DNA of 64,000 nt, taken from NCBI RefSeq assembly GCF_988243305.1, contig NZ_OZ547136.1; one strand, 5' to 3'. Of this stretch, positions 1,864 through 14,163 are shown piece after piece. Made by a program: the position numbers and the translations under genes. The first letter of the stretch is position 1. Each line of letters starts with the position of its first letter. The notes beneath the pieces are model-generated. The model did not search any database. It was given only the letters and a program-made list of their open reading frames with translations, and was not told the origin of the DNA.

Positions 1864-2637
1864 ATGAAATCTGCCACCTCTGCGCAAAGACCTTACCAGG
1901 AAGTCGGGGCGATGATCCGCGATCTGATCATAAAGACGCCGTACAATCCTGGCGAACGGCTGCCGCCGGAGCGTGAAATTGCAGAAATGCTTGATGTCAC
2001 GCGGACGGTGGTACGTGAAGCGCTGATCATGCTGGAGATCAAAGGGCTGGTGGAAGTGCGCCGGGGTGCCGGTATTTATGTTCTTGATAGCTCAGACAGC
2101 CAGAACACAGACAGTCCGGATGCCAACGTCTGCAATGATGCCGGTCCTTTTGAGCTGTTACAGGCGCGTCAGTTACTGGAAAGTAACATCGCGGAATTTG
2201 CCGCCCTGCAGGCTACCCGCGAAGATATCGTCAAAATGCGTCAGGCATTGCAACTGGAAGAGCGTGAGCTTGCTTCCAGCGCGCCGGGCAGCAGCGAAAG
2301 TGGTGACATGCAGTTCCATCTCGCCATTGCCGAAGCGACGCATAACAGCATGCTGGTGGAGCTATTCCGTCAGTCCTGGCAGTGGCGGGAAAACAATCCG
2401 ATGTGGATCCAGTTGCACAGCCATCTGGATGACAGCCTGTATCGCAAAGAGTGGTTGGGCGATCACAAACAGATCCTCGCCGCGTTAATCAAAAAAGATG
2501 CCCGTGCGGCGAAGCTGGCAATGTGGCAGCATCTGGAAAACGTTAAGCAACGTCTGCTGGAATTCTCGAACGTTGACGATATTTATTTTGACGGCTATCT
2601 GTTTGATTCATGGCCGTTGGATAAAGTCGACGCCTGA
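1864..2637 (+). CDS. uxuR: GntR-family transcriptional repressor of hexuronate utilisation
   Basis: 257-aa ORF with N-terminal GntR-type winged HTH and FadR-like C-terminal domain; position after uxuB. Confidence 0.92.
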   Translation: MKSATSAQRPYQEVGAMIRDLIIKTPYNPGERLPPEREIAEMLDVTRTVVREALIMLEIKGLVEVRRGAGIYVLDSSDSQNTDSPDANVCNDAGPFELLQARQLLESNIAEFAALQATREDIVKMRQALQLEERELASSAPGSSESGDMQFHLAIAEATHNSMLVELFRQSWQWRENNPMWIQLHSHLDDSLYRKEWLGDHKQILAALIKKDARAAKLAMWQHLENVKQRLLEFSNVDDIYFDGYLFDSWPLDKVDA

Positions 2638-2648
2638 CTGATTATGAT

Positions 2649-2680
2649 AAGCGCAAGGGTAAACGTTCCTTGCGCTTTCT
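2649..2680. terminator. Putative hairpin terminator between convergent uxuR and yjiC
   Basis: Inverted repeat aagcgcaagg...ccttgcgctt followed by tctt; lies between the stops of two convergent genes. Confidence 0.45.
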
Positions 2681-2777
2681 TAAATTAAGAAGTCGCAATG
2701 AGTATTACTTTGTAAATTGCAGGGTATTGTTTAAATATCTGTATAACCTGAATGTTAGTACTCATTCTTCTCAGTAG

Positions 2778-3608
2778 TCATTTACCAATATAATTCCATT
2801 CACCATTTTTTAATTCAAACAGTTCTGGAAGAGATGACGGTTGCAGAGTCATGCGTTTGAGTGGCGCATCTTCATCACCGGGGATAACTTTATATCCCAT
2901 TTTTGCATGGATCTCCGCGGTACCTGGATAGGCTTCTATACCAATTATTGGGTCATTTCCCATTCCAATATTAGCATTAAGTAATGCGGCAAGGGCGAAT
3001 CCGGAAGAATTTGCTACCCCGGTTACCGTCATTATCTGATCAATATAGATATCAATTCTTGGCTGCTCATTGGTCCATCTTTTTGCCTGAGAAGCTGGAA
3101 GGGTTGAAATATATCCTATCGTGGTTCCGGCATAACCAGGAACATTGCAACCAGGGCCTAATGTTATTTCATGAACTGTATAGTCCTCAACAGGATCGAA
3201 AGGGCTCTTCATAAATAAATTTAGCCGTAAACCTTCTGCTAACTCTGTGGCAGCATGCGCCTTTTTACATATACCACCATATATTTCGTCTAAAGCTGAG
3301 GTGATTTTCAAGTTTCGATAGAGCATACGCCCTGTTGTTGTAATACCATTGAATTCGCTGCATGTTTCTGTTACATAATTAAATGGCCAGGACTGTTTGC
3401 CAATATTAAGTTTTCTAATTTCGACAACGCTTTTTCCATCGTAATTATGGTTATTGCCACGAGTAAGAGGCAGAAGATAGATATTTTCCGTATCCATGCG
3501 TGCATATTCATATCGACGTGTTAACTCATTGTCGACTTTTGGGTGATGAAGGAAGTGATTATTTGTATTGAATTGGTTATTAGCGGCATTGCTTAATGGC
3601 ATAGACAT
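2778..3608 (-). CDS. yjiC: Uncharacterised protein YjiC
   Basis: 276-aa ORF in the conserved position between uxuR and iraD; AT-rich codon usage. Function unknown. Confidence 0.8.
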   Translation of the reverse strand: MSMPLSNAANNQFNTNNHFLHHPKVDNELTRRYEYARMDTENIYLLPLTRGNNHNYDGKSVVEIRKLNIGKQSWPFNYVTETCSEFNGITTTGRMLYRNLKITSALDEIYGGICKKAHAATELAEGLRLNLFMKSPFDPVEDYTVHEITLGPGCNVPGYAGTTIGYISTLPASQAKRWTNEQPRIDIYIDQIMTVTGVANSSGFALAALLNANIGMGNDPIIGIEAYPGTAEIHAKMGYKVIPGDEDAPLKRMTLQPSSLPELFELKNGEWNYIGK

Positions 3609-4280
3609 AATAGTTACCTTTTATGAGTATTTCAATGATGTTTAGAAAAATAGATAAATTTTTCTGTAGTAAAAAGAGAAGTAAACAAATGACATGCATG
3701 TTTCTGTTGTAGTGATATCAACTCTACACGGTGATATTAAAGGGTGGGAAACACTATAAAGTATCAAAAAACGCTCATTTAAAATTATTTGCATGCAATT
3801 TAAAAGCATATCTTATTACTAATTGGAATTTGATGTTGCTATATTGATGTCTATATTAATAATGCCTGTGAATGGTATTTTTGATGTATTTGATATGTTA
3901 TCAATTTATATTATTTACAAACTAATTGTTTCAAATAATACATGGCTGATTATGCGAAGATAAATAATTGCTTTCCGGGATTATGTAGCGACGGTGACAA
4001 GTATTTTCATCTACGTAACTATTCGGAATATTCAGAATATACTAGCAGTTTTTTTTTGAGTTTGATGATTTTTATCAAATCATGACTTTTTTCCTGAAAA
4101 GTCAGTAGATATTCATAGGCAAGTAAGGTTTTATACTTTGCTGACAGGATTCAGGCCTGTCTCAGACTGACATGGATGTAATGAACAAAAGGGAATGGCT
4201 ATGGAAAATGAGCATCAATACAGTGGTGCCCGGTGTTCAGGGCAAGCCGCATATGTTGCTAAACGTCAGGAGTGCGCAAA

Positions 4281-4673
4281 ATGATGCGCCAATCACTTCA
4301 GGCTGTTTTACCTGAAATTTCAGGCAATAAAACGTCATCGCTGCGTAAATCGGTATGCAGCGATCTCCTCACTCTTTTTAATTCTCCTCATTCGGCATTA
4401 CCGTCATTACTTGTTTCAGGCATGCCCGAGTGGCAAGTGCATAACCAGAGCGACAAACATCTTCAGAGCTGGTATTGCCGTCAGCTGCGTTCTGCACTGT
4501 TATTTCATGAGCCACGGATTGCGGCGTTGCAGGTCAATTTGAAAGAAGCGTACAGCCACACGCTGGCGATCAGCCTTGAGATAATGCTGTACCACGACGA
4601 TGAACCGCTAACGTTTGATCTGGTCTGGGATAATGGCGGTTGGCGTAGTGCGACGCTGGAGAATGTCAGCTAA
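4281..4673 (+). CDS. iraD: Anti-adaptor protein IraD (RpoS stabiliser)
   Basis: 130-aa product [17 protein letters not shown]...; start placed at ATG 4281 rather than the in-frame upstream GTG at 4272 used by the ORF track. Confidence 0.85.
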
Positions 4674-5577
4674 GCACAATCTCCAGCTCGCGCAGTTCAC
4701 GCCAGAAGCGTTCGGCAACGGGATTCATACGGGTGTTCATCCGGTATGCGTAGGCCTGAATCGGGATCACCAGTTCGTCCCGATTAAGCACAACGAGCTG
4801 CCCGCTGCGAATTTCTTGTTGGATGGCGTACTCCGGCAGCCAGGCAATCCCACAGCCGTCGAGGGCAACCTGCTTTAATAGCTCGCTCATCGAAGAGACA
4901 AAAAAGGTGCTGAAACTTAACTCGCTGTGGCGCGTCAGGGTGCGATTAATCAATCGCCCCATGTAGGAGTTGCGGCTGTAATTCAGTAACGGAAAGTGTG
5001 GCTGCGCGAGGTTAAACAGTGCTTCTCCGTGTTCGTCACTGGCGCAGACGGGGAATAATTGAGATTCAAATAAGCGAATGTGGTCAAACGGCGCTTCCAG
5101 CAAATCTTCGTCGTGAAAGGAAAAAATACAGTCACTTTGCCCTTCACGCAGTTTATCGACCGCTTCATCGACATCAATGGCTTCAATCGCCCAGGTAAAG
5201 AACGGCGGCATCTGGCTGATAATGGACGGTAACAGGCCGAGGGAAAGAGAGTGTGCAGCGGCTATCTTGATTTTACGTTGCGCGTAATCGCTGCCGCCAC
5301 GCAGCTCTGCCAGGTTGCTTTCTAACTGTTGCAACAGATGGCGGATCTGCGAATGGAAGATTTTCCCTTGTTCCGAGAGTTGCAGCGGCGTCACCTGGCG
5401 GTTAAACAATTCAACGCCAATCGCCTGTTCCAGTGCACGGATGCGGCGGCTGAATGCCGGTTGTGAGACGTTGCGACTGACTGCTGCCTGGGAAAAGTTG
5501 CGGCATTTTTCCAGGGTCAGAAAATCATAAAGCCATTTTGTTTCAATATTATGCAAAACCGCACCACAGTCATCCAT
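4666..5577 (-). CDS. hypT: LysR-family transcriptional regulator HypT (YjiE)
   Basis: 303-aa ORF with N-terminal LysR HTH ([23 protein letters not shown]) and LysR substrate-binding domain; convergent 8-nt overlap with iraD. Confidence 0.88.
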
Positions 5578-7980: not shown

Positions 7981-8217
7981 TGTTTTTTTGTGTTTGTGTG
8001 TTGCTTGAGCCAGGAAAATTCCTGGAGCTGAAAAACCTTATCAGCCATGTGGGTATGGGGAAAATGCAAGTATGTTTCTGGCTATGCGTTTTTTGCATAG
8101 CGGAAAAATTACGCTGTGGGGAAAAGGTTCTGCGCAGGATTGAGTTGCAGTAAATTCATAAACCCAGTGACAATGACATCAGTAAATTAAAGCAGAAAAT
8201 CCAGGGACGAAAACGAG

Positions 8218-8802
8218 ATGGCAAAGTACAACGAAAAAGAGCTGGCGGATACGAGCAAGTTTTTAAGTTTTGTCCTCCGACACAAACCGGAGGCGATTGG
8301 TATCGTACTGGACCGTGAAGGATGGGCGGATATCGATAAGCTCATACTTTGTGCCCAAAAATCGGGCAAGCGGTTAACCCGTGCATTGCTGGATACCGTT
8401 GTCGCCACCAGCGATAAAAAGCGTTTTAGTTATTCCAGTGATGGTAGGTGCATTCGCGCGGTTCAGGGGCATTCGACTTCGCAGGTCGCCATTTCCTTTG
8501 CCGAAAAAACACCGCCACAGTTTCTTTACCACGGTACGGCAAGCCGTTTCCTTGACGAGATAAAAAAACAGGGGCTGATTGCAGGGGTGCGTCACTACGT
8601 ACATCTCTCTGCTGATGAAGCAACGGCACGCAAAGTGGGAGCAAGACACGGATCGCCGGTTATTTTAACCGTCAAAGCACAGGAAATGGCGAAACGAGGC
8701 CTCCCTTTCTGGCAAGCGGAAAACGGGGTCTGGCTGACATCAACGGTTGCTGTTGAGTTTCTTGAGTGGCCGTTCATGCCGGCTGGGGTACAAAAACAAT
8801 AA
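8218..8802 (+). CDS. kptA: RNA 2'-phosphotransferase (Tpt1 family)
   Basis: 194-aa [31 protein letters not shown]...; Tpt1/KptA family recognised from memory. Confidence 0.85.
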
Positions 8803-8827
8803 ATTCAATATATTGCAGGGGTTATAT

Positions 8828-8858
8828 AGGCCTGATAAGCGCAGCGCATCAGGTAATG
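8828..8858. repeat. REP-like extragenic palindromic element
   Basis: aggcctgataagcgcagcgcatcaggtaatg immediately downstream of kptA. Confidence 0.55.
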
Positions 8859-8922
8859 TAGCGTTTGTTATCAGTCGGAAAGGATACCCTCGCACAAGGG
8901 TATCCTTAATAACCTACTAAAA

Positions 8923-11900
8923 TTAAAGTGATTTACGGCAGGCGGTCAGTTGGGGGCTGGAATCAGCGTCGCTTCCAGTCATACCCGTTAGCATCTGCAC
9001 ATAGTAGTGCCGATTGTAATCATCAGATTCACTTGTCCAGTAAGCTCCTTGTGTAAATTGCGAATTACTGGAAAACGCTCCAACGTTCCCCCATTCACCA
9101 TACAGTGATCCCTGCGTGCGTTTGTTTTCGCCAGACGTCAAATGTGTGATGCCAGGAAGATTATATCCATCATTTTTAGCATGACAGAGCGCATTGGCAG
9201 CTAGCCAGATATTGGTATGATTTCCATTATTCACCCACCAGCCTTTCAGCTTAATTAAGGTCTGGTAGGTTGTACCTCCTTGTCGGGGAACAGCGCTTAT
9301 TGTGACTGACGTTTGATCGCCGATATTTGCGAAAGAAACCTTACCTGAAGCATCGACCGACACCCAACTCTGTGAACTTGAAAACATATAATCATCAACG
9401 GTTTTACCCGCTTCAAAGTTATCATTGTTGAGTGTGTAATACGCTCCTGCAAAACCTTCGCTCGGGAATTGAGCCGTGGAGAAGGTATGGTTGTTTGCAG
9501 TGACATGACCGGACATTTCTTTTATCGAGCGGATGAGATTCAGCGATACGCTTAAGTTTGCCTGATGAACCCCGTTCAGCATGGGAATGAGAGTCGCTGT
9601 TCCCTCTTTTCCGCCAGTGACAGTCACGGTGTACTCGCCATAATTTCTTTGGCTGTAATCAATATCGCTCAACTTGAGAAAGTTCACGAAGGGACCTGAC
9701 TGGACAAATTCCAGATGATCAGACGTCACTATCGGATTACCGTACTTGTCTTGCAATGTTAGCGTAAGTTTCGCGCTATGCTGGTAGTCAGCCATCAGAG
9801 TGCCAACGTCGGATTTCAATAATGACTTACTTTCATCCGCCGTGCTGGCAAGCAAGGTAATAGCTGCGGATTGGTTGGCTGTACCAGGAACTTGCACATT
9901 GACCGTTAAGGTTTCTGCCAATGTACTGGTTATTGTCGCCGTGACTTGCCCGGACTGATCGGTACGCGTAGTTGGAATATTAACTACCGGGCGACCTTTG
10001 GTGTCTAAGGCGTAACGAACATCGACACCTTCAACCGGGAATCCGTAATCATCTTCTACTCGTGACGTGACGGTGCTGCTATCGATGCCGTCGGCGGTTA
10101 TGGTGTCAGGAGAAGCCACGACGCTCACAACATGTGCCGTTTTAGCATCTGCCTTAACCGCAACCGTTACCTGGCTCTGAACGGGAACATCTTTGCCCAT
10201 TGTGGCCGTAACGGTATAGACATTCACTTTGTCACTGGTCAGCGTTACTTTGGCCTGACCATACTGGTCAGTAAGGACTTCCCCTGTATTGCTTAGCGTT
10301 GCACCTTCAGGCGTTACGCTAAAGGTGATAATTTGCCCAGGCATTAATTCATCCCGAGCATTTCTCACCGTTGCGGTCAGCGTAATACCTTCACTGTTAT
10401 GGACCGTGGTTTCTGGCTTCGATGATGTTAACTCGAGCTTGCCATTTGCCACATTCACGTCAACCTTACTACTACTGTTATTGTCCAGCGTTGCCGTCAC
10501 CTGATAAACCCCTGGCTGGGTGCTAATAAGGTTAACGTACGCGTAACCGTTATTATCGGTGTAAGCCGTATCGCCTATCGTAATGTGAGCTGTTGGCTGC
10601 GCACTTAATCTGACGCGTTGACCCGCTATTACATTGTTAAACGCGTCCTGGACGAGTATCCGTAGTGTGATGTTTTCGCCAACCGTTATCGTTTTTTCGG
10701 CTCCGGTTATACTTATTACCTTCGCCGAACTTTCATCCGGCAGCACTGATAAACTAAACGTTTTATTATCGGAGGGTTGCGCTTTCCGGCTCACCACGAC
10801 GTTATGTTGTCCGGCAATATTGCTGGTCATTGTTACCGTCGCCTGACCCAGCGTATTGGTGGTGACTTCTGTTCCACTTAGAGTGACATCGTTACTCTGG
10901 AAAGTGACCAGCTGGTCTTTAAGCGGATTTTGGTAAGCGTCCAGGATCGTTGCAGTCAGGGTACTCCCCGTACTGTTACCCGCAACAATGGTATTTAATG
11001 AGGCAGTCAGCGGCTGGAGCTGCGCGCTGTTTGTATCCCCAATAAAAGTGACTTGCTGATGAGCAACGGTATTATTTCTGGTCAGCGTCGCCGTAACTGT
11101 AAACTCACCCGCTTTTGTGCCACGCAATGTGACCACGGCATCGCCGTTTGCATCGGTGCGGGCGGTTTCACTACTTAGCGTGAAGTTCCCGGTCATAGAG
11201 GCTGGCAAGGTAAATTTCACATCCTCATCCGGCAACGGGTGTCCATAAACATCTTTCACACTGGCTGTCAGGATAACGGTATTTGTATTGTTAGCGATCG
11301 CACTGCCTGACCCGGCATTTAAGGTCATTACCGATTGTTCCCTGTTTGGGACCACGGTGATCGTGACCGACTGGTGAATATTTTTATCCGCCTCAAGCGA
11401 GGCATCGACGGAATAGCTACCAGCTTTTGAACTGGTCAGGTGCACTCGCACAATACCGGACTGGTCTGTTGTGGCGGACGTGTTGTCCAGTTGCGAGCCA
11501 CCAGGTGCCACAAAATTCACTTTCATATCTTTTAACGGGTTGTTATGAAAGTCTGTGACGGTGGCGGTCAGAGTACTGCCCTGGCTGTTGCCAGCAATAA
11601 TGGTATCTGGATCGGCAACCAGTTGTTTGAATTTTGGCGTACTCGAATCGCTAACGAATTTCGCAATTATCCGTTGTGAGAAACCATTTGGCAGCGTGGC
11701 ACTAATCGTATTTTCTTCCGCAACCTGACTTACCATGTTGATTGTGGCAACACCATATGCATCCGTATTTTGCTGCGGCGGTTCGACAAATTCAGCGCTT
11801 CCTTTTTCATTCTTAAAGGTGACCTGATGATTTGTCAGGGGATTATCACTCTCATCAGTGACGTTGATAGTGAGGGTATTAAATGTCTTTTTATCGGCGT

Positions 11901-14163: not shown

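Follow-up and report, generated by a model that had tools for sequence, protein, structure and literature searches.

What occupies the interval between kptA and yjiJ differs among strains of Escherichia coli, and the locus raises the question of which gene lies there in a given genome, whether that gene is intact, and how much of the surrounding chromosome varies with it. We addressed this for a stretch of 64,000 nucleotides from contig NZ_OZ547136.1 (assembly GCF_988243305.1), referred to here as the window. The original prediction, made from the sequence without database searches, had placed in this interval a strain-variable adhesin of the intimin/invasin family and had left the family member unnamed. 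The family assignment stood, on matches to the barrel, the immunoglobulin (Ig)-like domains and the tip, and a name can now be supplied: the gene is almost certainly an intact allele of iatD, encoding a type Ve (inverse autotransporter) E. coli adhesin.

An intact iatD gene in the window

The gene is a single open reading frame (ORF), which begins with ATG and runs for 1746 codons and a stop; the ORF list reproduces exactly the coordinates and length of the original prediction. There is no internal stop in its translation, and an open frame of 5.2 kb is far beyond chance.

8923..14163, minus strand: iatD coding sequence, intact (ORF list, translation, RefSeq name, identity to the SMS-3-5 gene)

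Among the full-length megablast matches listed, the RefSeq name of the matching gene is 'iatD: inverse autotransporter IatD'. The genes iatA to iatD were defined in E. coli SMS-3-5 by Goh et al. (2019, mSphere, PMC6714894), where iatD is listed as EcSMS35_4876 with a length of 5241 bp. The window protein is identical to SMS-3-5 IatD at 1715 of 1746 residues (98%), with 31 substitutions and no gaps.

NCBIfam holds no IatD model, and its models for the IatC N-terminus, YrIlm, Ilp, intimin, SinH and YchO all score below their cut-offs. The intimin equivalog model (intimin_all) gave 363.8 bits against a cut-off of 1400, and the model relevant to IatC and YeeJ (Ve_IatC_Nterm) gave 1129 bits against 2400. 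On the NCBIfam scores intimin, invasin, IatC, SinH and YchO were rejected as the identity of the 1746-residue protein, and YeeJ was rejected on its 49% identity and different locus. An ORF on the plus strand inside iatD (12592-12981, 129 residues, TTG start) was treated as a chance antisense ORF.

The gene is not new: its family, name, domain plan, locus, patchy distribution and first phenotype were all published in 2019. The practical gain is that the window can be annotated correctly as carrying an intact, potentially expressible iatD, most O157:H7 copies being frameshifted.

Domain organisation of IatD

From the N-terminus to the C-terminus, the following elements were assigned to the protein.

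14029..14163, minus strand: predicted long Sec signal peptide, residues 1 to about 45 (inspection of the translation)
13807..13962, minus strand: divergent LysM domain, residues about 68-119, probably periplasmic and peptidoglycan-binding (Pfam, AlphaFold2, Foldseek, YeeJ)
12874..13722, minus strand: inverse-autotransporter beta-barrel translocator, residues about 148-430 (Pfam PF11924, barrels in the PDB, YeeJ)
9535..12858, minus strand: stalk of about 11 Ig-like modules, residues 436-1543 (Pfam, module length and alignment)
9247..9525, minus strand: invasin-D4-like Ig domain, residues about 1547-1639, packed against the tip (Pfam, phmmer to 1cwv, AlphaFold2, Foldseek)
8926..9246, minus strand: C-type-lectin-like tip, residues about 1640-1746, with the Cys pair C1660/C1742 (AlphaFold2, Foldseek, tip alignment)

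The inverse-autotransporter barrel that had been predicted is borne out by a match to Pfam IAT_beta (PF11924) at residues 148-423 (E 7.7e-109) and by the solved barrels of invasin (4e1t, E 1e-81) and intimin (4e1s, E 2.5e-67), which match residues 185-430; it is 87% identical to the barrel of YeeJ. The topology is that of type Ve proteins, with the PF11924 barrel N-terminal to the passenger and all Ig-like domains C-terminal to the barrel.

The passenger contains the Big_1/Invasin_D3 domains typical of the type Ve family. Nine such Pfam matches at E<1e-3 lie between residues 537 and 1536, and Invasin_D4 follows at residues 1556-1624 (E 4.9e-5), in keeping with the Ig-like repeat array of the original prediction. 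Two segments of about 100 residues each (436-536 and 632-744) have a period-like length, no Pfam match and weak alignment with the other modules, and are probably two further Ig-like modules. Pairwise identity among the stalk modules is 8-39%. A tandem-repeat search of the gene found no DNA-level tandem repeats. The number of Ig modules is therefore not expected to vary by slippage, which agrees with Goh et al.

The assignment of a Sec signal peptide of the kind found in type Ve proteins was made by inspection only. The putative peptide comprises an N-terminal extension, a basic DKIRR motif, the hydrophobic segment LTAGVCLFTQIFFPVMA (a 17-residue core) and an A-T-A cleavage motif followed by Q; over residues 20-45 it shares 62% identity with the N-terminus of YeeJ. 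Export is also in line with the surface localisation demonstrated experimentally for the 98%-identical SMS-3-5 protein (PMC6714894).

The predicted LysM domain found its support indirectly. The Pfam LysM match of the window protein is weak and below threshold (E 0.023-0.06). Nine of 14 aligned homologous N-terminal regions match Pfam LysM at E<=1e-3, and an AlphaFold2 model of the region is a beta-alpha-alpha-beta unit with a predicted local distance difference test score (pLDDT) of about 90. Foldseek matches to this model are almost all LysM domains, including those of E. coli MltD and the intimin periplasmic LysM (2mpw). The region is also 84% identical to the LysM region of K-12 YeeJ, which binds peptidoglycan and aids surface localisation (PMC5595812). 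Homologues, fold and Foldseek matches together suggest that IatD has the LysM domain of the large type Ve members, and by analogy it would bind peptidoglycan.

The lectin-like tip

A distinct C-terminal domain had been predicted, and it was recovered at the level of fold. Residues 1640-1746 have no Pfam match, and specifically none to Intimin_C. Residues 1540-1746 were modelled with AlphaFold2 from an alignment of 34 sequences, giving a pLDDT of 96, and the best PDB match found for the model by Foldseek is invasin D4-D5 (1cwv; template-modelling (TM) score 0.80, root-mean-square deviation 2.6 Å, 24% identity). Next comes intimin (1f00), with partial matches to the C-type lectin-like domains of snake venom and LOX-1. 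The model thus points to a C-type-lectin-like cap such as that of intimin, invasin, YeeJ and IatC, a feature that is not universal in the family. Of the Cys pair in the tip, C1742 is the same in every sequence of the 34-sequence alignment and C1660 in at least 90% of them.

A word-indexed protein search with the 207-residue tip gave two fragments only, and was replaced by an exhaustive one over 1.84 billion cluster representatives. By this search the tip family numbers 274 clusters at E<=1e-3 and 7 at E<=1e-30; the nearest relatives beyond IatD's own cluster are YeeJ-type proteins, at about 46% identity.

By analogy with its relatives, the tip may set the receptor specificity of IatD. A stronger proposal is that IatD is a host-receptor-specific adhesin or invasin whose lectin-like tip recognises one particular eukaryotic protein or glycan, in the manner of invasin with beta-1 integrins and intimin with Tir. 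The fold matches to invasin D4-D5 and intimin D2-D3 and the conserved, disulphide-forming Cys pair favour this proposal; a family of 274 tip clusters, with the nearest non-IatD relatives so divergent, would fit diversified specificity; and iatD is linked to a gene resembling a type III secretion system (T3SS) effector in one haplotype, described below. However, the integrin-binding Asp residues of invasin are not conserved in the pairwise alignment. We take D811 (in D4) and D911 (in D5) to be needed for integrin binding, a role reportedly established by Hamburger et al. in 1999 and by Leong et al.; in the phmmer alignment to 1cwv, D811 aligns with Ala1564 and D911 with Asn1664, with Asp1665 adjacent. 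There is also no Tir-like partner gene adjacent to iatD, and typical O157:H7, a gut coloniser, carries an inactivated copy. Binding of extracellular-matrix proteins by IatD was negative (PMC6714894). Taken with the evidence on both sides, a host-receptor-specific role appears somewhat unlikely, and we favour IatD as a surface adhesin that promotes attachment and biofilm formation.

A poly-C tract that varies among natural isolates

Shortly after the signal peptide the gene contains a run of cytosines.

13979..13985, minus strand: poly-C run C7, codons 59-61 (gene positions 179-185), in frame (alignment, genome survey, fetched loci)

The iatD of O157:H7 strain F6667 is marked as frameshifted by RefSeq, and the only insertion or deletion that separates it from the window gene is in this run, which has the length C7 in the window gene and C8 in that of F6667, where it leads to a stop at codon 67. 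Only C7 is in frame; the natural lengths C6, C8 and C9 shift the iatD frame. Run lengths were counted by exact-match searches with probes of 87-89 nt on the O157 and the window flank backgrounds. On the O157 background C8 was found in 284 genomes, mostly of O157:H7, C7 in 21 and C9 in 4, and on the window background C7 in 79 genomes and C8 in 3. The C7 form, with the gene on, occurs in about 10 typical O157:H7 genomes, in all listed O55:H7 genomes, in the sorbitol-fermenting O157 strain 493/89 and in LSU61.

Fetched loci gave the same picture of run length and frame. Those of O55:H7 CB9615 and O157:H7 JEONG-1266 have C7 and are intact, encoding the same protein (WP_000168875.1), whereas F6321 has C9 and O145 RM9154-C1 has C6, both frameshifted. 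In SMS-3-5 the run is interrupted (CCGTCCCC), encoding SSPSPL in place of SSAPPL, and the slippage-prone tract is absent. These length differences fit a site prone to slippage; some of the less common lengths could also be due to homopolymer errors in long-read assemblies. Judged from their reading frames, most O157:H7 copies of iatD are C8 pseudogenes.

It is conceivable, although we consider it unlikely, that the C7 run acts as a slipped-strand hot spot by which natural populations turn IatD on and off. If so, this switch and the two-form haplotype described below would make iatD a contingency-type adhesin locus and not a simple presence/absence gene. The text of Goh et al. (2019, PMC6714894) makes no mention of frameshifts, O157 or phase variation.

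In the pigeon isolate LP5-1 (NZ_CP101866.1) iatD is split by an IS3-family transposase, a second and independent route of inactivation.

Such inactivated copies bring in another explanation, that iatD is a cryptic, normally silenced gene drifting to loss and that its biofilm phenotype is a generic effect of an overproduced long surface protein. The excess of C8 over C7 on the O157 background and the insertion in LP5-1 both favour this explanation. The region upstream of iatD is AT-rich (35% GC), as are the upstream regions of H-NS-silenced E. coli adhesin genes, and biofilm formation by IatD has been seen only under overexpression in K-12 induced with isopropyl beta-D-thiogalactopyranoside (IPTG) (PMC6714894). 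However, distant lineages (SMS-3-5, O55:H7, O145, the ATCC 11775 type strain, poultry isolates and the window) retain the entire 5.2-kb frame and are 97-99% identical over it at the nucleotide level. Amino acid conservation of IatD exceeds 98% (Goh et al. 2019, PMC6714894), and in the absence of selection so long a frame would have closed. We therefore judge silencing and drift to loss to be quite improbable, and retain the view that iatD encodes a surface adhesin.

iatD lies within a two-form chromosomal segment

The kptA-yjiJ location given in the original prediction was verified: the flanking kptA is supported by an NCBIfam equivalog at 422 bits, yjiJ is the other neighbour, and iatD lies between the same two genes in the window, O157:H7 and SMS-3-5. 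The chromosomal position of iatD has been described as conserved (Goh et al. 2019, PMC6714894). The prediction also depended on the absence of the gene from K-12, and in K-12 MG1655 iatD is indeed absent, with the stop codons of kptA and yjiJ 12 bp apart. Strain-variable presence, likewise predicted, is seen in the survey of complete E. coli genomes, 638 of 5426 of which carry iatD (megablast, at least 80% coverage).

Where the original prediction saw a variable gene, the variable unit proves to be larger. The window and K-12 are 97.3% identical up to position 8769, 81.6% identical over yjiJ-yjiK (14423-16457) and 96.6% identical from 19251, and window positions 16458-19250 have no K-12 counterpart. 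The yjiJ-yjiK alleles of the iatD segment are thus about 18% diverged from those of K-12. At 16722-18884 on the minus strand lies an ORF of 720 residues with pentapeptide repeats and low GC content (33-38%), which is absent from K-12 and annotated in O157:H7 as espX6 (T3SS effector EspX6); NCBIfam gave only sub-threshold pentapeptide and PipB2-like matches for it. Over this whole stretch O157:H7 and the window are collinear and 95.6-96.5% identical.

Among the same 5426 genomes yjiJ occurs in two forms, the window type (at least 90% identity) in 636 and the K-12 type (80-90%) in 4690. As the count for the window type almost equals that for iatD, iatD is part of an alternative haplotype some 10.5 kb long. 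This two-form segment (8770-19250) comprises iatD, the diverged yjiJ-yjiK and the espX6-like gene. It may have arisen by introgression or may be an old polymorphism. An origin of the K-12 state by direct-repeat deletion was rejected, since what lies between the breakpoints is not the same sequence in the two genomes. In the window a 14-nt match, CTGATAAGCGCAGC, occurs downstream of kptA, and in K-12 it falls within yjiJ; it was rejected as a repeat, being a chance match or a fragment of a repetitive extragenic palindromic (REP) element.

No mention of the two-form segment of about 10.5 kb, or of the poly-C polymorphism, was found in the searchable literature. The haplotype and the homopolymer on/off polymorphism are modest additions, of use in explaining why E. 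coli lineages differ in their adhesins.

Several differences were observed in the neighbouring genes. In the window, kptA (8218-8802, plus strand) encodes 10 extra C-terminal residues compared with K-12, the K-12 stop codon coinciding precisely with the haplotype breakpoint; the kptA copy of O157:H7 F6667 has a frameshift in its annotation. In SMS-3-5, iraD and hypT are separated by an island of about 20 kb (12154-32331 of the fetched SMS-3-5 locus), with ptsP, dhaKL, gcl, ibeA and nhaC. At the iraD-hypT junction the window (about 2288-5577) forms one ungapped block with K-12, so it evidently lacks this island.

Non-coding DNA flanking iatD

Three non-coding features were noted on either side of the gene.

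14164..14373, minus strand: AT-rich (35% GC) region of 210 bp between the yjiJ stop and the iatD start (sequence, composition)
8880..8907, no strand assigned: perfect hairpin with an 11-bp stem, candidate bidirectional terminator of the convergent kptA and iatD (sequence, ViennaRNA)
8830..8853, no strand assigned: REP-like palindrome GCCTGATAAGCGCAGCGCATCAGG downstream of kptA (sequence)

A ribosome-binding site, GGAAGG, lies a few bases upstream of the iatD start, and a consensus scan found one weak sigma-70-like match upstream of the gene, at 14359-14330. The promoter and terminator consensus scans gave match counts no higher than those of shuffled controls, and so provide no evidence on regulation. 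A 65-nt segment containing the hairpin folds at -21.9 kcal/mol (ViennaRNA); the hairpin was unreported by the terminator scan because it has no T-run. The palindrome at 8830..8853 is called REP-like for its resemblance to E. coli REP consensus sequences. An Rfam scan of positions 8000-20000 at gathering thresholds found no RNA family.

Function and proposed mechanism

Surface exposure and biofilm formation have been shown by others for the 98%-identical SMS-3-5 allele only, under overexpression. SMS-3-5 IatD is surface-exposed by immunofluorescence, and when overexpressed with IPTG in K-12 it promotes biofilm in both microtitre and flow-cell assays (Goh et al. 2019, PMC6714894).

For the window iatD, direct observation covers its sequence, domain content, folds, chromosomal position and occurrence among genomes; the route of secretion, the binding to peptidoglycan and the recognition of a ligand by the tip are proposed from intimin, invasin and YeeJ. 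On this model, IatD would be exported through Sec by means of its long signal peptide, the LysM domain would stay in the periplasm and bind peptidoglycan, and the barrel (residues about 148-430) would be inserted in the outer membrane. The C-terminal passenger would then be threaded out through the barrel by hairpin secretion, folding outside, domain after domain, into a rod of about 12 Ig-like domains. The rod would present the invasin-D4-D5-like Ig domain and C-type-lectin-like tip tens of nanometres from the surface, and the exposed passenger would promote attachment and biofilm formation.

Several observations weigh against this interpretation. The overexpressed SMS-3-5 protein caused no autoaggregation and bound no extracellular-matrix proteins (PMC6714894). 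Native expression of iatD is at best putative, and the region upstream of the gene has only one weak match to a promoter consensus. Frameshifts disrupt the gene in most O157:H7 genomes, so at least that lineage can dispense with it. The Pfam score for LysM is below threshold, and with Ala1564 and Asn1664 in place of D811 and D911 an invasin-like integrin mechanism is not supported for the tip.

Comparison with known systems

The closest counterpart is IatD of SMS-3-5, which resembles the window protein in its length of 1746 residues, its neighbours kptA and yjiJ and its domain order.

Intimin (Eae) of enteropathogenic and enterohaemorrhagic E. coli is ordered like IatD, from LysM through barrel and Ig array to a C-type-lectin-like tip, and the tips are related by Foldseek at E 6e-7. 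The two differ in that tip identity is only 16% and neither tir nor genes of the locus of enterocyte effacement (LEE) are adjacent to iatD.

The invasin of Yersinia pseudotuberculosis resembles IatD in its barrel (E 1e-81), in its last five passenger domains, which align at E 4.7e-24, and in the fold of the tip (TM score 0.80). It differs in that the tips share 24% identity and in that IatD has a LysM domain, which invasin is not known to have, and a stalk more than twice as long.

YeeJ (K-12 b1978) is a paralogue of IatD with a similar general layout. It differs in its locus, near asnT, in its length of 2339 residues with more Ig repeats, and in an overall identity of 49% that falls along the passenger: the LysM regions are 84% identical, the barrels 87%, the first Ig regions 73% and the tips 46%. 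YeeJ, too, promotes biofilm (PMC5595812). With 84-87% identity in their N-terminal parts, IatD and YeeJ share a nearly common translocation unit, and their passengers have diverged.

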